A stretch of 64,000 nucleotides of DNA from a virus (Duplodnaviria; Heunggongvirae; Uroviricota; Caudoviricetes), in the IMG/VR virus record IMGVR_UViG_3300017792_000001, positions 168,697 to 232,696 of that record, one strand, 5' to 3'. This document shows positions 7,798 to 23,504 of this stretch, piece by piece. Positions within the stretch are counted from its first letter, which is position 1, and every line of letters begins with the position of its first letter. Under the pieces are notes generated by a model. The model was not told where the DNA came from and made no database searches. It was given only the letters and a program-made list of their open reading frames with translations. The translations under genes were made by a program, and so were the position numbers.

Positions 7798-8436
7798 TTA
7801 GAGCGGTCGTCGCATGTGCGGACCGTTATCGTAGGCGTTGATGCCGTAGACCTCGAAGCCCAGCTCAGTCGCGTAGTTGAACACGGCCTGGGATTCGGCG
7901 GCAATCATTGGTGTCTCGTTGTCGAGTGGACGTGACAGGCTGATCAGCCCGAAGATGTAGTACGGCTTCTGGCGCCAGCTACCTGCGTTTGCGCCTTCAA
8001 CAACAGGCTTACCGTTTTCGTCGTATGGTGCACGCACTTCAATCGACACCCACTTCGCGTCGGTATCAACGTCGGCAAGCCACGCGAGTCTGTAGTCGAG
8101 CAAGGCTTTATAGATTCCCTGCTTCTGGTGACTCGGGTTAACGAACGCGCCGCAGAGTTCCCAGTTCTTCTCCAGGAGTTCAACACGGTGCGTGGTAGTG
8201 CTGTAGTACGGGCTGTCTTCGTGCAGCACCAATGAGCCCATGCCCACGATCACGTCATCGACTACAGCAACCCAGGTACGGCGCTTCTCGTGGTTGAGCG
8301 CTTTGCCCAGAAGGTACAACTGGTGTTCGAGGTTGTGCTGCATACTCGACAGGCCGTCTGCTTCCCGCATCATGTGCAGGAGAGCGCGCAGTCCAGGTGC
8401 TTCGAGGTCTTGAGGCTTGAGTTCGCGAATGTCCAT
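7798..8436 (-). CDS. GNAT family acetyltransferase
   Basis: WVAVVDDVIVGMG; acetyl-CoA motif A FVNPSHQKQGIYKALL; LGFEVYG. Confidence 0.8.
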   Translation of the reverse strand: MDIRELKPQDLEAPGLRALLHMMREADGLSSMQHNLEHQLYLLGKALNHEKRRTWVAVVDDVIVGMGSLVLHEDSPYYSTTTHRVELLEKNWELCGAFVNPSHQKQGIYKALLDYRLAWLADVDTDAKWVSIEVRAPYDENGKPVVEGANAGSWRQKPYYIFGLISLSRPLDNETPMIAAESQAVFNYATELGFEVYGINAYDNGPHMRRPL

Positions 8437-8438
8437 GA

Positions 8439-9296
8439 TTACTTCCGTTTTTTCTTGGGCAACGGCGGCGCTTCGAGCTGGCCGCTGATCACACGGTTGT
8501 AGATACCGACGACAGACTTGCCGCCATGTGCGTTCCAGACTGGGTCTTCGAGCAGTGCTTCAAAGTGCCCAGCAATACCGCTGTCACCCTTGTGCATGTC
8601 GGTGTGATTGAAAATCTTCACCTGCTCCAAGTAGTCAGCGAACTGGGTACGAATCGGCTGCTTCTGCTTCGGCTTGTTCACGTCATCCCAGCTTGTGCCG
8701 ATGAATTCGTTGAGCATGCCACGAGTGACCCACGGGCTGATCCATTCACGACCCAGGCTGCGGCAATACTTCTTCAACTTGGAAGTCTGGGAAGTAGGGC
8801 CGATCACCTTGTTGAACTTCGGAATGCGGTAGTCGTCGATGCAGTCGCGGTAGTGCATACAGCCAGTCTTCGACAGAGCGAAGTAGATGTCGGCTGCAAG
8901 GCCGCCAGTCATCGAATGCTCTTTGCCTTGGTCGATGCAACGGCGAATAGCCCAGAACGCTTCGACTTCAACCTTGCTGCGGGTCTGGAGCAGATCAACG
9001 TTCGCTACCATGTCGCGCTTGAGCGTATCAAGGCAGCGAGGCAGCAGCACAGGCGAGAACGGAATGCCGAAGACTTGAGCGGTGTTGCGCGCTGATTTGA
9101 AGTCACGGCTCTCGTGGTCTTCCATCGTCACACTGTAGATCGTGATGTCTTTCGGCTTGTGCCCAAGTTCCAGCAGGGAGAACAGTACGGCATGGCTGTC
9201 GAGTCCGCCGGACATCAGGACCCCAAAGGGCCCGTCATGTTTCTCCAGGTTCTTCATCAAAGCCATCTTGATGTTGGGTTTAATGATCTTTCCCAC
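8439..9296 (-). CDS. Asparagine-synthetase-like ATP pyrophosphatase (synthetase domain only)
   Basis: PP-loop SGGLDS; GGLAADIYF resembles GEGADE; SPW resembles the xPF motif; no N-terminal glutaminase domain. Confidence 0.75.
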   Translation of the reverse strand: MGKIIKPNIKMALMKNLEKHDGPFGVLMSGGLDSHAVLFSLLELGHKPKDITIYSVTMEDHESRDFKSARNTAQVFGIPFSPVLLPRCLDTLKRDMVANVDLLQTRSKVEVEAFWAIRRCIDQGKEHSMTGGLAADIYFALSKTGCMHYRDCIDDYRIPKFNKVIGPTSQTSKLKKYCRSLGREWISPWVTRGMLNEFIGTSWDDVNKPKQKQPIRTQFADYLEQVKIFNHTDMHKGDSGIAGHFEALLEDPVWNAHGGKSVVGIYNRVISGQLEAPPLPKKKRK

Positions 9297-9297
9297 G

Positions 9298-10371
9298 TTA
9301 CTGTCCTTTGATCTGGGTGAGTGTCTTGTCCATCAGCTTCACGATGTCACCGGTCATCTTGCGACCAGTCATGTGGAAGGCAAAACACTCGGCGAAGAAT
9401 TCTTCTGGCTTGGTGAGCGCGTACTCGGACGGGTCAGCTTTCGACTCGACGATCGTGGAGCGCTTCGGCCACATGCTGGCAAACTTCTCGCTGTCCTCAG
9501 AGAACAGAATGGCGAGTGACTTGCCGTCGAGCTTGTGGTACTTCTTGTAGTGCGCCAGAACTTCTTTGAACACGCTCTTGGACTCGTCGTCCAGTTCTTT
9601 CTGGAAGTCGCGCATATCGCCGTCTTGATAGCCCAGCAATTCGTCAAGCAGAGACTCCAGGCGCTCTTTCAGGAAGTTGGTCAGTTCGATGCGCTTGTGA
9701 AACATCTTGATCCAGCGCGCCTTGGTACGCGACTCGACCATCTTGTACCAGACAGCATGACCGTATTCGTGATACAGCAGGTACTCGTTCCACTGTGCGT
9801 CTTCAAACGTCTCAGGGAACAGGTCAACCTTGTCGCTGATTTCAGAACCCTTGCGGCGAATCTCGTACATGCCCGCGTACTTGCCACGCTTCGGATAGAC
9901 GCGCATAGCAGTGAACGGGAACACGTCGAGACTGGTTTCGATCATCTGCGCGTAGGTAGACTTCAAGGCTTTCTTGAAGGACTTCATTTCGCGTTCATTC
10001 AGTTCGCGATAGAAGTGGATCGGGCCGTACTTGGTTTCCACCGAGCTGATGTACGGGTTGATCTTCACACCGTATGCAGAGCCAGGCTTTGGCTTGGTGC
10101 CGAGAACTGCAACGAGGTTCTGTTCGTCGAACTCGATGGTCTTCGGTTCGTCGTCGATCAGCGTTGAGTCAATGACTGCACGGCCGCGTTCTGGGTTGAT
10201 CGCCAGACACAGGAAGTTCTTGGTGCCGACCTTGACAATGATGTAGCTGTCTTTCTCGACAGGCATACCACGACCGATCTCGCGGGTCTTCTGCTTCTTG
10301 AGTTTCGGAGCATCGCCGCTTACGTCGATCTTGGCCTTGTCTTTCTTCTTGAGTTTCTTTTCCTTAGCCAT
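9298..10371 (-). CDS. Zincin-like metallopeptidase-domain protein
   Basis: HEYGH plus downstream SEYALTKPEEFFAECF (anthrax-LF-like third-ligand motif). Confidence 0.7.
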   Translation of the reverse strand: MAKEKKLKKKDKAKIDVSGDAPKLKKQKTREIGRGMPVEKDSYIIVKVGTKNFLCLAINPERGRAVIDSTLIDDEPKTIEFDEQNLVAVLGTKPKPGSAYGVKINPYISSVETKYGPIHFYRELNEREMKSFKKALKSTYAQMIETSLDVFPFTAMRVYPKRGKYAGMYEIRRKGSEISDKVDLFPETFEDAQWNEYLLYHEYGHAVWYKMVESRTKARWIKMFHKRIELTNFLKERLESLLDELLGYQDGDMRDFQKELDDESKSVFKEVLAHYKKYHKLDGKSLAILFSEDSEKFASMWPKRSTIVESKADPSEYALTKPEEFFAECFAFHMTGRKMTGDIVKLMDKTLTQIKGQ

Positions 10372-11009
10372 CAGTCACGCGCTCCGCCGACACTGACAAT
10401 ACCGTAGTAACCCAGGCTGCCCGGGATGAACATTTGGTTGTCGAATTTAGGATAGTCAGGCAGTGGGTTCTGACTGTAGATGACATCGACGCCGTTGCCA
10501 GCAGGCATGCGCAGGGTTTTGATGCCCCACTTGTACGACTCAAACTCCAGCTTCAACACGGCGAAACGTGGATCAACCGTGGTCTGCTGAATGGCCTTGT
10601 TGATGATGTAATCACGGATGCCACGACCGCGACTGACAAACTCGTCGAACATATCGTCAGCCTTGATGCAGCCAGATGCGAAGCCTTCTTCTGGCATAGA
10701 CTCCCAGGCGAGATACACACAGACTGCCATCTGGTCTACCATGGTGCCTTCGAAGTAGGTCTCGGTAGCAGTGGCGACCATATCGCAGAAGGTCTTTTCG
10801 TCTTCGGTGAGTTCACGGCCTTCCGGCGGACGCTCATAGCCCATCGCCTTGCATTCGAATGCTTGCTCGTCGAACACCTTACGCAGGTTGTCCTTGTACG
10901 GATTGGTCTTCTGCGGGAACAGTTCGTTCCAGGCTTGACGCACGTACCAGTCCGGATCATCTTTGACAACGAACTGGGTGTATTTTGGAATAGTCATGGT
11001 CATGTTCAT
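10371..11009 (-). CDS. Hypothetical protein
   Basis: 212 aa ORF overlapping both neighbours. Confidence 0.7.
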   Translation of the reverse strand: MNMTMTIPKYTQFVVKDDPDWYVRQAWNELFPQKTNPYKDNLRKVFDEQAFECKAMGYERPPEGRELTEDEKTFCDMVATATETYFEGTMVDQMAVCVYLAWESMPEEGFASGCIKADDMFDEFVSRGRGIRDYIINKAIQQTTVDPRFAVLKLEFESYKWGIKTLRMPAGNGVDVIYSQNPLPDYPKFDNQMFIPGSLGYYGIVSVGGARD

Positions 11010-12526
11010 TTACCTTTGAGCAGGCCTAGGCCCTTCGATGGTTTGCGTTTACAGTTGGCGAACCCGTGCTTGAGATAATCTTCAAGCGTCCAAGTGCCAC
11101 CCTTTGCCCACAACCAGATCGGTTCAATCGAAGCGCCTTCTTTGCCTTCGAGAGCACCCGACTGTGGGCGTTTGGCGAGACGCAACCCAATGCAACCAAG
11201 ATAGCGAGCACCCTTGAGCGTGCCGATATAGTCGTTCATTGGGTCGCAGATTTCACCACGCTCCATCGTGTCGTTGTTGTAGATGTCGGCGATGTTCATG
11301 GCGAGAATACCACCACGATCGCCCTCGTCTGTCAGCGCATCCCACGAGTTCTTCAGGGACGGGAACAGGAAGCCTTCGAGCCACGCGTCAATCTCACCGA
11401 ACTTGCGGAACGATTGGCCTGGGTCGTCGCTGTACTGCTCAGCGTTGAAGTACGGCGGGCTGGTGAACACGGTATCGACCTTGTACCCGTAGCGCTTGCG
11501 CATACCCTTCGGCAGTTCAGAGCCGTGGCAGTGCATTTCAATCTCTTGGCCCTTCTGACGATAGCGCTTGACCTCGGCAGCATAGCCCTCGTACAGGCTG
11601 CTGTTAGGGTCAGTCGAGCAATAGAACTCGGCGCCTTTGGTTGCCATGAAGCCAGCAACACGGTCGCCCCACCCAGAAGAAGGATCGTACACCCGTTTCG
11701 CGTTGAACAGTTCGTAGAAGCAACGTGCGGCAAGTGGCTTGAACTGACTGGCGATGTACTTGCGCATCGACAACGTGGTACGGAATTCAGGGTTACCGAT
11801 GACCTTGTACTTGAGAGTCCACAATGCGTTGAGCATGGACATCATGTACTTGTCACCGTGCCAAACTCGATACGGCGAAGGGATGCCTTTGTAGTCGCAC
11901 TTCCACCGGTTCTCTTGGTGGTAGTAGTTCGATGCCTCGTTGCCAGTACGCGGTGCGTCGATCACGATGTCGCTGATTGCATAGCGGTAATCCCAACGAG
12001 TGACAGTCGGCATCCGCTTGATCAGCTTCGATACGTCAAACTCCTGAATCTGTTTGAACGCAGCATCGGCTTCACGCAGACTGATTGGCTGCATCGGCGC
12101 AGGCATTTCGTAATGACGAATCGCCTTGATGATCGCTTCTTTGATCGTGCCCTTGTCGAAGTGCTCATTCAAGTCACGCCAGAGTTTGGCATTGATCTTG
12201 ATTTCACCATTCTTCACCAGCTCGTGGATATTGATTTCACCACTTGCTGCTTTGGCCTTCGACTTCACAAGACCCAGGCCGGCCGGCATTGCTTTGACGT
12301 GCTGTGCAGGTTTCAGATCAGACCAGCGCTTCGACATCACAATCCAGCGAATGGTCTTGGGGTGCACGCCGTAGTGGGCGCCAGCTTTCTTGCAAAACTT
12401 CTTGTGCTGCTCTGGGTCTTTCTGGCAGCCGCCTTCTTTCCAACGCTTGCGCAGTTTCATGGCGAGCGTGTGGTCGAACTTGGATAGCTCAGGGCGCAAA
12501 ACTTCTTCGAGAGTAGGGACGGTCAT
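11006..12526 (-). CDS. SAM-dependent DNA amino-methyltransferase-fold protein
   Basis: SAM motif YDPSSGWGDR and catalytic FTSPPYF. Confidence 0.8.
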   Translation of the reverse strand: MTVPTLEEVLRPELSKFDHTLAMKLRKRWKEGGCQKDPEQHKKFCKKAGAHYGVHPKTIRWIVMSKRWSDLKPAQHVKAMPAGLGLVKSKAKAASGEINIHELVKNGEIKINAKLWRDLNEHFDKGTIKEAIIKAIRHYEMPAPMQPISLREADAAFKQIQEFDVSKLIKRMPTVTRWDYRYAISDIVIDAPRTGNEASNYYHQENRWKCDYKGIPSPYRVWHGDKYMMSMLNALWTLKYKVIGNPEFRTTLSMRKYIASQFKPLAARCFYELFNAKRVYDPSSGWGDRVAGFMATKGAEFYCSTDPNSSLYEGYAAEVKRYRQKGQEIEMHCHGSELPKGMRKRYGYKVDTVFTSPPYFNAEQYSDDPGQSFRKFGEIDAWLEGFLFPSLKNSWDALTDEGDRGGILAMNIADIYNNDTMERGEICDPMNDYIGTLKGARYLGCIGLRLAKRPQSGALEGKEGASIEPIWLWAKGGTWTLEDYLKHGFANCKRKPSKGLGLLKGK

Positions 12527-12534
12527 GTTGTTTC

Positions 12535-13341
12535 CTACAGGAACGTATATTCGCCGCCGAGATTCCAGAACAGAGTCTTCTTGCGGCGCATAATGTCGGT
12601 GTTTTCAGTCAACCAGTGCCAGGCTTTCATATCCCAGAATTGGTTGCACGGGAAAGGCGCAGGGTCAACCTTCGGCATCACGTCGCTGAATTCATACGGC
12701 GAGTGGACGATGGTGACGTTATCGAGTGGGATCTTCCACTGCGTCATGGTCTTGGTGATCGCGCCCTCAGAGGACACACAGATCGTGTATACTTTACCCT
12801 TTGGGTTTAGCGACAGGAAAGCCTTGGCAAGTCCAGAGACTGTCACGCCAGCACCGCTACTGATCACCAGGTTGTCGATGTGCCCGAGTTCTGCAAACGT
12901 TTCACGAAAGCGGCGGGCCATCGGGTTCAGATACCATGGAGTACCGAACGCATACGGCAGCATCTGGAACCCACGCTCGTCACCCATGTTCTTCGCTTGC
13001 GCATATAGCACGCGCATCATGTTGTGACGAATGGGGATCAGCTCGCCACCATTCTTGGTGATGTTGTGCAGGTATTCTTCTTTGATCTTCTTGGTGATCG
13101 GATGCACGATGTGGACTTCGTGCTTCTTCGCGAGCTTCGACAGCGCCCAACCGGACCACGAACCGAAGACGTTCAAGTGAATGATCGGCTTGTTCGGATC
13201 CATCTTGGTGAGCACTTCTTTGATGGCGTGCAGCTTTGCCCATGGCGGCAGCGTCTTGTTGTCACCCATCAGGTCGTCACGCTTCACCAGAACTTCGTGG
13301 CGGCCAATCTTGTACGTTTCAATCGGAGTGTCGAGTCTCAT
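12535..13341 (-). CDS. PLP-dependent fold-type II enzyme (ACC deaminase/D-Cys desulfhydrase-like)
   Basis: VKRDDL...WAK (PLP lysine), SSGAGVTVSG phosphate loop, C-terminal LFWNLG. Confidence 0.8.
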   Translation of the reverse strand: MRLDTPIETYKIGRHEVLVKRDDLMGDNKTLPPWAKLHAIKEVLTKMDPNKPIIHLNVFGSWSGWALSKLAKKHEVHIVHPITKKIKEEYLHNITKNGGELIPIRHNMMRVLYAQAKNMGDERGFQMLPYAFGTPWYLNPMARRFRETFAELGHIDNLVISSGAGVTVSGLAKAFLSLNPKGKVYTICVSSEGAITKTMTQWKIPLDNVTIVHSPYEFSDVMPKVDPAPFPCNQFWDMKAWHWLTENTDIMRRKKTLFWNLGGEYTFL

Positions 13342-14078
13342 TTCTTTTCCTTGCGTGCGTATGCGGTCATGTACGACAGCAGTTCGTTACCCTGTTGGGC
13401 TTCTTCACCGCTGTAGAAGTTGTGCGCTGACGTGGCATGCAAGGTCAACGTACCCATTTTCATACCGCTGCGCTCTGCGATATAGGTACCAAGGTCACAC
13501 AGAGCTTTGATGTCCGCATATCCCGCTTTGCCGAAACGCATTGAGCGGAAGAACGCGGTAACGTCGAGCTCCTTGTTGCGCGGCTTGATGTCTACTGACG
13601 ACAAGCACGGCACACCGCCCATGACTTTCTTTGAGTCACTGGTCGGGTCGTACACGGCAATGGAAATCATCTTGGTGTTCTTGCCGTTGCTCAGCTTCTT
13701 GATGGCTGCTTCGATCTGGTTGACTTCACCACCGAACGCGATCATGCGCCCCCAGTAGCTGTTCGTCCACTTCGCTTTCGGATCGTTCTGCTCATACGAC
13801 CAGACACCGAGCATGTTCTTCTTGGGCTGCACGAACGTCACGGATGCGGCGTAGTCGATACGCTCGTCGCCGTAGACATTGCGGAACTCACTGTCGAAGA
13901 ACTTGTTGGTCTTGCCGGTCATTGCGAAGTTGTCACGCAGCACCATGATCAGGTTTGGAATCTCTTGGATCCCGCTGATCTTGATACCGTCGCGTTTGAT
14001 CTTGCCATACGTCTTGCACCACAGGGATGCAATCGAGTTGGCTTCAATGATTGTCGCCATTGTTCTTTTCCTGTTCAT
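13338..14078 (-). CDS. Thymidylate synthase/dCMP hydroxymethylase family protein
   Basis: YWGR, catalytic PC, FRS, Asp at the Asn177-equivalent position, SAHNFY. Confidence 0.78.
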   Translation of the reverse strand: MNRKRTMATIIEANSIASLWCKTYGKIKRDGIKISGIQEIPNLIMVLRDNFAMTGKTNKFFDSEFRNVYGDERIDYAASVTFVQPKKNMLGVWSYEQNDPKAKWTNSYWGRMIAFGGEVNQIEAAIKKLSNGKNTKMISIAVYDPTSDSKKVMGGVPCLSSVDIKPRNKELDVTAFFRSMRFGKAGYADIKALCDLGTYIAERSGMKMGTLTLHATSAHNFYSGEEAQQGNELLSYMTAYARKEKK

Positions 14079-18154: not shown

Positions 18155-18523
18155 TCACACTTGTCGTGGAATAAGCCAGATGGTGTGCGGTGCTGGATCT
18201 TTGGCAACTGGTTCACAGAAGGCGTCAGTCACCAGCTTACAACCACAGGCAGTACCGACACTACCGTCAAGCACTTCATCGTATCGGGTATTTGGGTCGA
18301 GGCAGTTGATGAAGGCATTGGAGCCGATCAGGTCTGCCCAGTGAGAATTGCGGATGAAAGCAACCTCGGACTTGCCAAGCTGTTCGATGAAAGCCTGTTC
18401 GTTGCCGTTGATGGTGTGCGGCCATTCGACTGCGCGAGTGCGATCAATGGTGTAGTAAGCACAGCGCTTGTGTTCATGTTCGATGATCTGTTCGTCAGTC
18501 GGTTCTACTTTAACTTCTGTCAT
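18155..18523 (-). CDS. Hypothetical protein, possibly a capsid-like fragment
   Basis: 122 aa; LDP...GSVGTACGCKLVTDAF. Confidence 0.65.
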   Translation of the reverse strand: MTEVKVEPTDEQIIEHEHKRCAYYTIDRTRAVEWPHTINGNEQAFIEQLGKSEVAFIRNSHWADLIGSNAFINCLDPNTRYDEVLDGSVGTACGCKLVTDAFCEPVAKDPAPHTIWLIPRQV

Positions 18524-18553
18524 GTTCGTAATTCCCGCAGGTTATTGAAATAG

Positions 18554-18577
18554 AAAAGGGAACCCGAAGGCTCCCTT
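18554..18577 (-). terminator. Terminator of the tRNA transcript
   Basis: AAGGGAGCC-TTCG-GGTTCCCTTTT. Confidence 0.75.
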
Positions 18578-18762
18578 AGCACATCTTCTGCTTTGCCACC
18601 AAGCCGTGAAAGGGTGAAGCGGCATTACAGCGCTGCCGGTCAAGCAAGTGACCAAACGAGATTTCCCGGCAGTGTATGGTTCTATGTCTGCAAGTCTCGC
18701 CTGCACTTCTCCCGACTTGCACCTTCCACTTAAGGGCGTGTGCCAACGGCTGACATAGAATT

Positions 18763-18838
18763 TGGTGGGTCGTGCAGGATTCGAACCTGCGACCAATTGG
18801 TTAAAAGCCAACTGCTCTACCAACTGAGCTAACGACCC
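18763..18838 (-). tRNA. tRNA-Lys(UUU)
   Basis: GGGTCGTTAGCTCAGTTGGTAGAGCAGTTGGCTTTTAACCAATTGGTCGCAGGTTCGAATCCTGCACGACCCACCA; full cloverleaf with CCA. Confidence 0.96.
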
Positions 18839-18847
18839 GAACGAGCA

Positions 18848-18919
18848 GGGTCCGTACAAGTTTCCCTGTCAATGCTAAGCAGTCTCACGCACGAAGGCTT
18901 GCTGCTCAACACCGGACCC
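18848..18919 (-). ncRNA. Structured three-way-junction RNA between tRNAs
   Basis: GGGTCCG/CGGACCC closing stem, an 11-bp helix with G-U pairs, and ACAGG-GAAA-CTTGT. Confidence 0.5.
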
Positions 18920-18925
18920 ACAAAA

Positions 18926-19002
18926 TGGCGACACCGAAGGGACTCGAACCCTCGACCCCTAGCGTGACAGGCTAGTGCTCTAACCAACTGAGCTACGGCG
19001 TC
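18926..19002 (-). tRNA. tRNA-Asp(GUC)
   Basis: GACGCCGTAGCTCAGTTGGTTAGAGCACTAGCCTGTCACGCTAGGGGTCGAGGGTTCGAGTCCCTTCGGTGTCGCCA. Confidence 0.95.
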
Positions 19003-19006
19003 TAAA

Positions 19007-19083
19007 TGGTAGGACGTCTGGGATTCGAACCCAGGACCAATGGCTTAAAAGGCCACTGCTCTGACCAACTGAGCTAACGTCCT
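19007..19083 (-). tRNA. tRNA-Lys(UUU), second divergent copy
   Basis: AGGACGTTAGCTCAGTTGGTCAGAGCAGTGGCCTTTTAAGCCATTGGTCCTGGGTTCGAATCCCAGACGTCCTACCA. Confidence 0.95.
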
Positions 19084-19089
19084 ATGAAA

Positions 19090-19166
19090 GGTGGGAACAA
19101 GAGGAATCGAACCTCCATCAGAATGCGACGCGCGCAAACTGCTCTGCCAATATGAGCTACGTTCCC
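19090..19166 (-). tRNA. tRNA-like gene with aberrant anticodon arm (pseudo-tRNA)
   Basis: Good acceptor (GGGAACG/TGTTCCC), D and T arms; anticodon arm non-canonical; ends ACCT. Confidence 0.6.
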
Positions 19167-19294
19167 AAATGCGTCTCGCCGACTCCAGTAAAGCCACGAG
19201 GGTAAATCAATCGCTGCCACCAGTTACGGCGAACACGAACTCGGATACCAGGACTGTCTTGATGCCAGACTTCTAACTCGATTGTCTTAAACAT

Positions 19295-19585
19295 TCACAG
19301 TTTCCTGGCTTTGAGTGGGCGCTCTACCGAGTTGTTGTACTCGACGTGAGCAACTGATGGCCCATCAACGAAGTCAAACAGTTCGACCTTCACTGTGATC
19401 GTGCCAGCTTGGTTCAAGGTAACAACGGCAGTCGCGTGTCGATACGTGGTGCGCTTCTTGACCAGTTCGACAACGCAGTCAGCAATCTGCTTTTCCAGAA
19501 ACGCGGTGCTCGCATCCTTTGGATACGTGGCGACCGTGATTACATCTTCAATGACTTTGTGGATTACTGACATGCCGATACCCAT
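19295..19585 (-). CDS. Hypothetical protein
   Basis: About 92-96 aa ORF. Confidence 0.6.
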   Translation of the reverse strand: MGIGMSVIHKVIEDVITVATYPKDASTAFLEKQIADCVVELVKKRTTYRHATAVVTLNQAGTITVKVELFDFVDGPSVAHVEYNNSVERPLKARKL

Positions 19586-19592
19586 GAGTGCC

Positions 19593-19829
19593 TCACGCCG
19601 TAAATAGTCGGCCAGTGATTCGAAGTTCTTCTAAACGCGGCTTTGATAGCCAACGTCGTAATGGTTTGCAGAATCCCGGGGCGCACAGCATGATACTCAG
19701 GAACATCTGTGCTGCGAATGTCGTATCCGCATTCAGGTTGCCGGTGAGATATGCGATGCAACCAAACAGGAGATACGAACACCATACAGCGCGAACCCAG
19801 AGGTTGAGTCGTGGGACGAGCTTGAACAT
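19593..19829 (-). CDS. Small membrane protein
   Basis: 78 aa, two hydrophobic segments, AAGGA RBS. Confidence 0.6.
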   Translation of the reverse strand: MFKLVPRLNLWVRAVWCSYLLFGCIAYLTGNLNADTTFAAQMFLSIMLCAPGFCKPLRRWLSKPRLEELRITGRLFTA

Positions 19830-19849: not shown

Positions 19850-19936
19850 TGGAGCGGAATTCAGGATTCGAACCTGACGGCGATCAACCGCCTATACCCT
19901 GCGCAGGGTTGTCCACCGAGAGGACAGGTCTTCCGC
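19850..19936 (-). ncRNA. tRNA-like RNA with Gly-type acceptor end and no anticodon loop
   Basis: GCGGAA/TTCCGC-T-CCA; T arm TCAGG-TTCGAAT-CCTGA; long variable arm; ACCCT-GCGC-AGGGT in place of the anticodon arm. Confidence 0.6.
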
Positions 19937-20099
19937 ATGAGGTCTGTGACGTAGACCAATCGACCAGATCACGCACACCACATTGAGTACACAGGCAGCG
20001 CTTCGGTTTATTCCGATTAACCGCAATGACAAGAATGGTTTGGTGCCCCTCAGAGGATGTCGCATGTCGCTCGTGATGGTTAAGGGGAACGCTCTGGTT

Positions 20100-21045
20100 G
20101 CTACGATTATATCCCATCGTCTGCCAGGGTCAGGACGCAGCGGGCGGGCTGTGTTCGGAAATAGGGACCGAAAGTGGACTGTCGAGAAGACCCAGGTAGG
20201 GCGACCAGGTCTGTCGAGCCGTGCAGGCGGCACCACCTTATCAACGCTCTCGTATCTGCCGGGACCAAGAGTCGTCTATCAAGTCGCTGCATTCACCCGA
20301 CAAACGCCGGGGATAATAAAGGTGCTTCACACTCGTTACCGCGTCAGAACCAGAAGGACAATACGGGAGGACGTTTCCGCCGAGTCGAAATCGCGTTCGC
20401 GTTCTCTATCTGCTGGTTAGAGGCCCTCACTCTGGATTCTCTCTTAAATTCTCAGGAAGAAGTCGAGTGTGAAGCGAAAATTGAAACCCACCTATAAGGG
20501 CTAGTAAGACTCGATGTTTAGGTTCGCTAGCGGAATTCCTACTTTCACTACCCACATCTGAAGGGCTTGATCCGGTCGGCTCGTGGCTGCGTGTGTCGGC
20601 ATTCTTTTCTTCTTTACACAAATAGGTGGGAGTGGTTGCGGCTCTCACTTCAAGAGAGCCGAGTGAGCAACTGCTTTCGGGGTTAGAGGCTCAAAACCGC
20701 ATCCCGTCTACAGAAGGCAACCATGCGCTTGATGGGCGACCACTCTAGTATCTTGTACGTAAGGCGAGGCAAACAACCCGACGGCACGCAAACGCAATAC
20801 TCACGCTGCCTATGCTCCGCAATTCACCCATTAACCGAAGCAGGAGTTTCCTCGGTGACGATCCTTTGGACCGCTGGATCAGGCGCGCCGACCTATCAAG
20901 TCAGTACCTGTCGCATACCCAATTGGGTTTCACGGATTAACCGATCATCAGTGCGACTGTGCGAAAGCCCTCTGTATGCGCAAAGGGCTTTCTATCTCTG
21001 TGGTTTCTTGGCGGGAAATCTCTGCTGCTGGAACAACAGGACACC
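20100..21045. ncRNA. Candidate large structured non-coding RNA or RNA array
   Basis: No credible CDS; tandem long-range helices (see findings). Confidence 0.45.
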
Positions 21046-22506: not shown

Positions 22507-22845
22507 TTACGACAAAACGGCCTGGGTAAACACGACGCGCAGGGTATTGACGAACGCCACGCCTTCATCGTCCATGATGTCGGACAGGTTCAGTTCGACG
22601 TGCGAGATACGCACCACGTTATCGACAGTCAGGCCAACCGTGGGAATCGTTACCTGACGCAGCGATTCTTCTTCGGGCTCAGTGCCCGGCATCGGCATCA
22701 GGGCAAGCAGGTCATCGTGCAATTCGCGCAGAGACTTCGAACGAGCTACAGCCAACACCGCGTTGTCTTCGGTGAGTGCGACGCCGCGAAAGGTCACGGA
22801 CTGTTCGAGAGTACCGAGTACGTTTTCAGGAAGTGCCATGATCAC
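22507..22845 (-). CDS. Hypothetical protein
   Basis: 112 aa, GGAGG RBS, GTGA overlap. Confidence 0.65.
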   Translation of the reverse strand: MIMALPENVLGTLEQSVTFRGVALTEDNAVLAVARSKSLRELHDDLLALMPMPGTEPEEESLRQVTIPTVGLTVDNVVRISHVELNLSDIMDDEGVAFVNTLRVVFTQAVLS

Positions 22846-23504
22846 GCCTCCAGTTTACGTGGCAGGATGACCCAGTCTTTCGCGAGTGCATCGCTCTGGC
22901 TGATAGTCCAGACAACGACTTGGCCGTCGGCAGTGAACATATCAATGTGCGGGCGGAATTCGATCTGGCGGCCAGCGTCGAAGATGCCGAGCAACGGAGC
23001 ACGGTTGACTTCGAACTCGGAACCTGGAACGAGATAGACGAACATACCCTTGCCGTTCCAACCTTCACGCGCAGCACGATAACCGTTTTCCAGGGCTTCG
23101 AGCACAGCGCCGAAACTAACACCGGTGTCACCAGCCTTCGGTTGCTTGGCGAGTTCGGCTACGTCGTTCGCTTCGCTGCTGAACGCAACGGCAATCTCGA
23201 AATAGGTTTCTGGGCCTGTGTCTGGCGATTCGATTGCGGCTTCCGAACCAGTCTGCGTGCGATAGAACACCGACACGTTGTCAGCCTTGTCAGCAGCCAT
23301 TTCGGCTTGCAGCTTGGAGATTGCAGTGCGACGATCACCAGCGATAGTCACGGCCTTGTAGATTTTGAACAACGGCGTGATGTACTCACCCCAATTGTCC
23401 ATGTGACCGCCGACATCACCTTGTTGCAGGATGTGGATCTTGCAGCCCAGGCCGCCGAGAATTTCATTTGCAACGCTGTCATTCATTACGGTTGGAACGA
23501 TCAT
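22842..23504 (-). CDS. Fusion protein with C-terminal DUF2829/Tad2-like domain
   Basis: SFGAVLEALENG-YRAAREGWNGKGMFVYL...W-TISQSDALAKDW, characteristic of DUF2829. Confidence 0.75.
   Translation of the reverse strand: MIVPTVMNDSVANEILGGLGCKIHILQQGDVGGHMDNWGEYITPLFKIYKAVTIAGDRRTAISKLQAEMAADKADNVSVFYRTQTGSEAAIESPDTGPETYFEIAVAFSSEANDVAELAKQPKAGDTGVSFGAVLEALENGYRAAREGWNGKGMFVYLVPGSEFEVNRAPLLGIFDAGRQIEFRPHIDMFTADGQVVVWTISQSDALAKDWVILPRKLEA

Follow-up and report, generated by a model that had tools for sequence, protein, structure and literature searches.

The window analysed here, 64,000 bases from a virus record that is complete, 277,601 bases (277.6 kb) long and has direct terminal repeats, carries on its minus strand, at 19850..19936, an element of 87 nucleotides (nt) which, judged by its fold and by the comparison of its copies, is a real, selected, non-decoding tRNA mimic with a glycine-type acceptor end and no anticodon loop, and not a decayed gene. 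The same comparison indicates that this conserved mimic is carried by two unrelated kinds of phage, PaBG-like jumbo phages such as the one studied here and a temperate phage. We assign the virus to the first kind because its peptidase and the one of Pseudomonas phage PaBG share 66% identity, as well as the gene order around the tRNA cluster being shared; this likeness also suggests a Pseudomonas host. As to function, we tentatively propose, by analogy with known toxin substrates and with a probability of about 0.4, that the element is a bait for host defence toxins that read tRNA acceptor ends, rather than a glycine carrier.

The cloverleaf is the RNAfold minimum (-34.2 kcal/mol, z -2.28) and displays G1-C72, C2-G71, G3-C70, U73, the CCA and the 5-bp D stem that a preliminary description, made from the sequence alone, had ascribed to this 87-nt element. 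The 5' strand of the acceptor stem, GCGGAAG (19930..19936, on the minus strand as are all the window features given below), is invariant in the 11 copies compared and faces 19854-19860 in six Watson-Crick pairs, pair 7 being a G-A mismatch in every jumbo-phage copy. The discriminator U73 and the encoded CCA (19850..19853) are likewise invariant. The D arm (19910..19926), whose stem reaches 6 bp in some relatives, has a GG-containing loop like those of selenocysteine tRNA (tRNA-Sec) and allo-tRNAs. The anticodon arm is shrunken to ACCCU-GCGC-AGGGU (19896..19909), a perfect palindrome of 14 bases made of 5 bp and a GCGC loop (GUAC in loci L012 and L013); its loop, first described as of 4 nt or fewer, has 4 nt in 11/11 copies. 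The T arm (19862..19876) had been called perfect, and it does present a UUCGAAU loop, with A51-U63 in the jumbo copies, but only four T-stem pairs hold in all copies (two of them compensated in the temperate-phage copy, L034). Similarly, the long variable arm (19877..19891) is present, but the alignment favours a 5-bp stem two bases over from the one first drawn, abutting the T stem and with two compensated pairs.

Searching for a glycine-type acceptor plus T arm plus UCCA gave one match in the genome and none in 100 shuffles. The element was missed by Rfam at gathering score and by ARAGORN, a check that the preliminary description had suggested, although the latter called four neighbouring tRNAs; relaxed ARAGORN output was pure noise. 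Its best Rfam match was tRNA-Sec (RF01852), which scored 21.8 bits (E 0.51) where the cut-off is 47, and it has no UCA anticodon. With respect to RF00005, the acceptor stem with its NCCA end and the T arm are present and the 7-nt anticodon loop with U33 is absent.

Nineteen loci were collected through homologues of the downstream open reading frame (ORF) of 78 amino acids (aa), and in 19/19 the element lies directly upstream of that ORF, in ten distinct sequences including that of the window. The eleventh distinct copy, L034, was obtained by a pattern scan and belongs to an unrelated 37-kb temperate phage (record 95% complete), with an integrase that shares 66% identity with its counterpart in Pseudomonas phage phi2. 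All 11 copies keep G1-C72, C2-G71, U73, CCA and a four-base self-complementary loop, GCGC or GUAC and closed by U-A, in the place of the anticodon. No copy has an anticodon loop, as expected from the non-decoding tRNA first proposed, and no relative carries a normal tRNA in its place. Over the acceptor and T arms the jumbo copies are identical at 32-34 of 34 positions, and the unrelated temperate copy at 29/34, whereas the fourfold-degenerate sites of the adjacent ORF are identical at 8/26 to 24/36 (31-67%). It is this conservation next to diverged silent sites that refutes simple decay. Moreover, there are compensated pairs in three stems, their counts reflecting few events in mutually related copies, and the same short loop recurs across unrelated phages. 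The failure of ARAGORN and Rfam would agree with a decaying tRNA-Gly pseudogene or an attachment-site remnant, and so would the frequency with which partial tRNA genes are reported in prokaryotic genomes (PMC9897764). Given the conservation, this explanation is extremely unlikely, and for a remnant there is the added difficulty that the element is about 9 kb from the integrase in the temperate phage.

The element was not found in Rfam, in the annotated phage collection or in the literature searched, BLAST searches of annotated phages and plasmids matched it only by chance or in the T arm, and PaBG has no copy. An exact 27-base scan of viral contigs yielded no match and looser pattern scans returned mostly ordinary or unrelated tRNAs; a 230-kb record picked up by pattern scan proved to be a chance match within coding sequence. 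The family model, built from the 11 copies, gives them 77-104 bits by construction, and everything outside them scored below 38 bits.

Energy alone favours the register of the variable stem first drawn (-34.2 versus -31.7 kcal/mol for the shifted stem). In the alignment, however, two pairs of the shifted stem are changed on both sides (C-G to U-A and G-C to A-U) and the first register has no compensated pair, which favours a variable stem abutting the T stem over a plain 7/5 cloverleaf. The T stem of L034 has four pairs only, and its compensating pair 50-64 rules out a 9/3 fold. Within the 12-bp branch, the 4-bp T stem forms in 11/11 copies and pair 7 in 1/11. Together with the 5-6-bp D stem and its short GG-containing loop, this gives the layout of allo-tRNAs and tRNA-Sec (PMC5389517), although the element would not be a clean 8/4 member, because 6/11 copies form pair 8 and 10/11 allow a fifth T pair.

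The identity set of bacterial tRNA-Gly comprises G1-C72, C2-G71 and U73, plus C35 and C36 of the anticodon (PMC9976931). The glycine acceptor identity of the preliminary description stands in that the first three are invariant across copies, but charging with glycine is doubtful because C35/C36, which belong to that set, are missing from both versions of the loop. The closest canonical matches of the family model in gammaproteobacterial genomes were tRNA-Gly(GCC) at 35-38 bits, in a weak search that took in 151 genomes from the order to which one Cellvibrionaceae genome belongs, with just 29 candidates scored in each. We regard the element as a putative glycine end on a serine-like body, which would be an imperfect substrate for glycyl-tRNA synthetase (GlyRS) and seryl-tRNA synthetase (SerRS) alike. 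SerRS reads the long variable arm and needs no anticodon, so that the element could be a serine-accepting allo-tRNA derivative charged through that arm, acting as a serine donor or as a SerRS-binding RNA. However, bacterial tRNA-Ser mostly has G2-C71 (PMC9976931) where the element has an invariant C2-G71, the eighth acceptor pair is confined to the 6/11 copies mentioned above, and a serine-using transferase was not detected; we consider this alternative decidedly improbable.

The decoy is favoured because purifying selection falls on the acceptor and T arms. In the mechanism that we propose, the element would be transcribed together with the tRNA cluster from a conserved promoter-like site and excised by the tRNA-processing enzymes of the host, as a stable RNA whose last bases are U-CCA. 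The comparison of copies shows a tRNA-like acceptor end and elbow without an anticodon, incompatible with decoding; such an RNA would be poorly glycylated, would offer no anticodon loop to nucleases and would be excluded from the ribosome. As an expendable and mostly uncharged copy of the tRNA-Gly acceptor, it could bind or absorb toxins that select the first base pairs and the CCA end, the candidates being toxSAS pyrophosphotransferases (FaRel2/PhRel2/CapRel type) or glycine-specific GNAT toxins, and the host tRNA-Gly needed by the phage would be spared. FaRel2 recognizes G1-C72, C2-G71, G4-C69 and Pu5-Py68, and toxSAS enzymes, whose substrate is deacylated tRNA, also accept minihelices (bioRxiv 10.1101/2024.07.05.602228). 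All four determinants and the CCA are present at the element's acceptor end, and the element also has both determinants of TacT, U73 and G71 (PMC9976931).

The genomic context, as far as the compared loci indicate, is accessory, since the element is absent from PaBG and occupies a variable slot in lambdoid relatives of the temperate phage, where the same early-operon position holds this RNA (L034), another tRNA with a glycine-type acceptor (L144) or none (L145). We count this distribution for the decoy, together with the further anticodon-dead tRNAs of the jumbo island, which have differing acceptor ends, and the island's Tad2-like gene and capsid-fragment paralogue. The usual target of anticodon nucleases is tRNA-Lys(UUU), two of which are in the cluster. 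A decoy would fit this context better than a glycine donor. Several points weigh against it. The neighbourhood evidence is only suggestive; the preference of FaRel2 is for type I tRNAs, in which the variable loop is short (bioRxiv 10.1101/2024.07.05.602228), and the element is long-armed; a pure acceptor decoy leaves the conserved long variable arm and the self-complementary loop unexplained; and the weak EF-Tu pair A51-U63 marks charged non-proteogenic tRNAs (PMC7826273), although L034 has C51-G63. With regard to the loop, the change from GCGC to GUAC, a single event, retains self-complementarity and hints at pairing between two molecules; predicted dimer stability was discarded as evidence because any palindromic hairpin gives it. 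It is conceivable, though quite unlikely, that the element is a mobile RNA-only anti-defence gene, an uncharged tRNA-Gly acceptor decoy with a self-complementary loop in place of the anticodon, through which two copies would pair into a sponge with two heads for toxins that modify tRNA ends. It would then belong to a set of anticodon-dead tRNAs that phages exchange for one another to match the specificity of host toxins.

The invariant G1-C72, C2-G71 and U73 would also suit a private glycine donor, charged by the host GlyRS, ignored by EF-Tu and used by a tRNA-dependent transferase, Mom-like or of another GNAT-fold type. The A51-U63 pair would weaken EF-Tu binding (PMC7826273), and the G7-A66 mismatch probably would too. 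In addition, the glycine with which Mu Mom modifies adenine comes from Gly-tRNA-Gly (PMC13219725), and the mom homologues of Dehalococcoides islands contain a tRNA-Gly-like locus (PMC3146451). The window has a DNA-modification-like cluster (7798-14078) that replaces the ParB/methylase genes of PaBG and encodes a thymidylate-synthase-like protein, a pyridoxal-phosphate enzyme related to YuA gp11, a methyltransferase-fold protein, a peptidase, an asparagine-synthase-like protein and one GNAT; no aGPT-Pplase or kinase was recognised in it. The GNAT (7798-8436) occurs in the element-carrying clade, its homologue P0010 being on a contig of 170,002 bases, as long as the one from which L008 comes, and was not found in PaBG, whose PaBG_00181 has no detectable homology to it. 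Searches for DruA-like and HD_4 hydrolases were empty, that for DruA being without a control over the cut-off.

Against a donor, C35/C36 are absent, whereas the staphylococcal donors retain a UCC anticodon (PMC7826273), and no Mom, Fem or synthetase gene was detected in the jumbo genome. For Mom, protein, PF25680, phrog_1384 and unfiltered phmmer searches detected none in either the jumbo genome or the 95%-complete temperate record, with a Mu positive control that worked, though a very remote homologue could escape these searches; FemAB, PF13480, GlyRS alpha and PF00587 (class IIa synthetase domain) were not detected in the jumbo genome. The GNAT keeps a QxxGx acyl-CoA-type motif, and the folds closest to it belong to acyl-CoA acetyltransferases; the 50 matches listed in each of two fold searches of its model did not include Mom, and kinship is still possible. 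A distant GNAT homologue adjoins an asparagine-synthase-like gene and methylases in a 12-kb locus in which no tRNA gene was found. We also count against a donor that, in thymidine hypermodification, it is free amino acids that serve the amino acid:DNA transferases as substrates (PMC8989533). The preliminary description had suggested that the nearby modification enzymes take an aminoacyl group from the element, but these lie 6-12 kb away and show no sign of charged-tRNA use, and no protein was detected in common between the jumbo genome and the temperate phage that carries this RNA. A remote or host-encoded transferase is possible as the user of the glycine, and a private donor is, on balance, somewhat unlikely.

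RNase P reads the acceptor and T arms and not the anticodon, and this counts for the view that the element is a processing or stability signal. The tRNA shape would recruit RNase P and 3'-trimming enzymes, punctuate the polycistron and free an upstream structured RNA and a downstream mRNA, its identity being incidental. The element is indeed preceded by a conserved ORF-poor leader and followed by a start codon 21 nt past the CCA, and the L034 copy is directly 3' of a terminator-like hairpin. Processing, however, depends on shape rather than on sequence, and the six acceptor pairs and U73 are nonetheless constant even across unrelated phages, while the acceptor of the second tRNA-like gene of the island varies freely, with compensation. 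Since the downstream genes also differ between the two phage types, we consider such a signal improbable.

A sigma70-like promoter candidate (20106..20133; 10/12, consensus match only) is shared unchanged by 15 relative loci and lies 169-170 nt upstream of the element. The ORF that always follows the element in the jumbo clade (78 aa, hydrophobic, 19593..19829) is succeeded in the same operon by one of 96 aa (19295..19585), conserved in relatives, and a 45-aa ORF (19157..19294), called as a gene in relatives, has its stop codon inside the second tRNA-like gene; judged by eye, the small ORFs resemble those of PaBG. A terminator-like hairpin at 18556..18577 (consensus match only) closes the tRNA cluster. 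Upstream of the element, an ORF-poor stretch of about 1 kb (19940-20960) is 77-85% identical in relatives, above the adjacent ORF, and is a candidate structured RNA with no Rfam match. Structured non-tRNA segments were also seen between and after the tRNAs, at 18547-18680 (conserved 77-79% in relatives) and 18848-18919.

ARAGORN and Rfam place four tRNAs at 18763-19166. Three are canonical in both: tRNA-Lys(UUU) (19007..19083), tRNA-Asp(GUC) (18926..19002) and a second tRNA-Lys(UUU) (18763..18838). The fourth is the second tRNA-like gene (19090..19166; ARAGORN 'Ala-CGC', 39 bits), which has intact acceptor, D and T arms with compensated changes, a remodelled anticodon arm with a 3-5-nt loop (10 nt in L016) and a terminal A that is not encoded. 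Its relatives (L008 8656-8732, L011 784-860, L015 1824-1898, L016 3664-3742 and L026 1189-1265) were miscalled by ARAGORN as Ala, Thr, Ser, Met, Leu or ???, with five different anticodons. The island also holds a 122-aa ORF (18155..18523), given as context only, which is a fragment paralogue of the major capsid protein that the phage itself encodes (genome 260978-262009; E 2.9e-14). Upstream of the island is the gene of a protein with relatives carrying PF11195 (Tad2-like; 22842-23504).

PaBG and one more distant relative each have yet another anticodon-altered tRNA. That of PaBG, annotated as a 94-nt 'tRNA-Ala' (L001 7532-7625), lies between a small membrane ORF and Lys/Asp tRNAs, has U73 and a hairpin inserted in the anticodon loop, and is probably non-decoding as well. 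Two phage tRNA genes (L147 94-170 and L144 9599-9684) have anticodon loops without U33 and purine 37, the L144 one with a glycine-type acceptor and U73 and in the slot that the element occupies in L034. Other loci, mostly from Bacteroidota (L035 2210-2303, L036, L091, L092, L101, L102, L109 and others), combine a glycine acceptor, U73, a UCA anticodon and a long extra arm with CUCCA or UUCCA in its loop; they are possibly opal-reading or two-armed tRNA-Gly genes. A clean 8/4 tRNA-like gene missed by ARAGORN is present in a Cellvibrionaceae genome (L066 642-727, the same as L087 6944-7029), with a glycine acceptor, U73, CCA, a long variable arm placed directly next to the T stem and an unusual anticodon loop. 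A possible 8/4 tRNA-like gene in L150 (about 723-820) has a 6-bp D stem, a long variable arm, a G discriminator and a 4-nt loop in the anticodon arm, a likeness that may be one of analogy only.

Known phage tRNAs overcome tRNA-targeting immunity by substituting for the tRNA that has been damaged, and a conserved tRNA unable to decode points to a second use, as bait or carrier, in an RNA that standard annotation overlooks. The element is a natural test case of whether GlyRS or SerRS can charge a tRNA without an anticodon loop and, as an 87-nt natural RNA with three separable predictions (glycylation, serylation and toxin binding), it allows a direct test of an old question, the reason for the presence of odd tRNA-like genes in phages.

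Among known systems, the phage tRNAs that counter PARIS, retron Ec78, PrrC and Schlafen are likewise reported as accessory-region tRNA genes tied to tRNA-targeting defence (PMC11464382, PMC11555353, PMC10264068, PMC13056530), and the two tRNA-Lys(UUU) of the cluster fit that pattern. Those tRNAs, however, reportedly work in place of cut host tRNAs, and the element, being non-decoding, could serve only as bait or carrier. With the Staphylococcus non-proteogenic tRNA-Gly NP1-NP3 (PMC7826273), it has in common the glycine acceptor end, the weak A51-U63 pair and, by prediction, being kept off the ribosome, but these retain UCC as anticodon, their variable loop is short and their partner is known (FmhB/FemA/FemB); the element shows none of these features. 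Like the tRNA-Gly-like locus in mom homologues (PMC3146451), it is a mobile-element look-alike of tRNA-Gly that annotation misses or calls pseudo; unlike that locus and Mu Mom (PMC13219725), it has a long variable arm and no anticodon loop, and a mom homologue was detected in neither carrier. The closest parallels in shape are the 8/4 or 9/3 allo-tRNAs and irregular polycistronic tRNAs (PMC5389517), with which it shares a long D stem with a short loop, a long variable arm, a shortened T stem, an allowed U73 and occurrence in phages, and some of which are thought to be non-translating and lie near toxin-antitoxin genes. Allo-tRNAs, however, keep an anticodon loop and many decode (PMC5389517), whereas the element has a 4-nt loop, an inconsistent eighth acceptor pair and glycine-type acceptor pairs. 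We place it among irregular or non-proteogenic phage tRNAs, as a variant of that kind.
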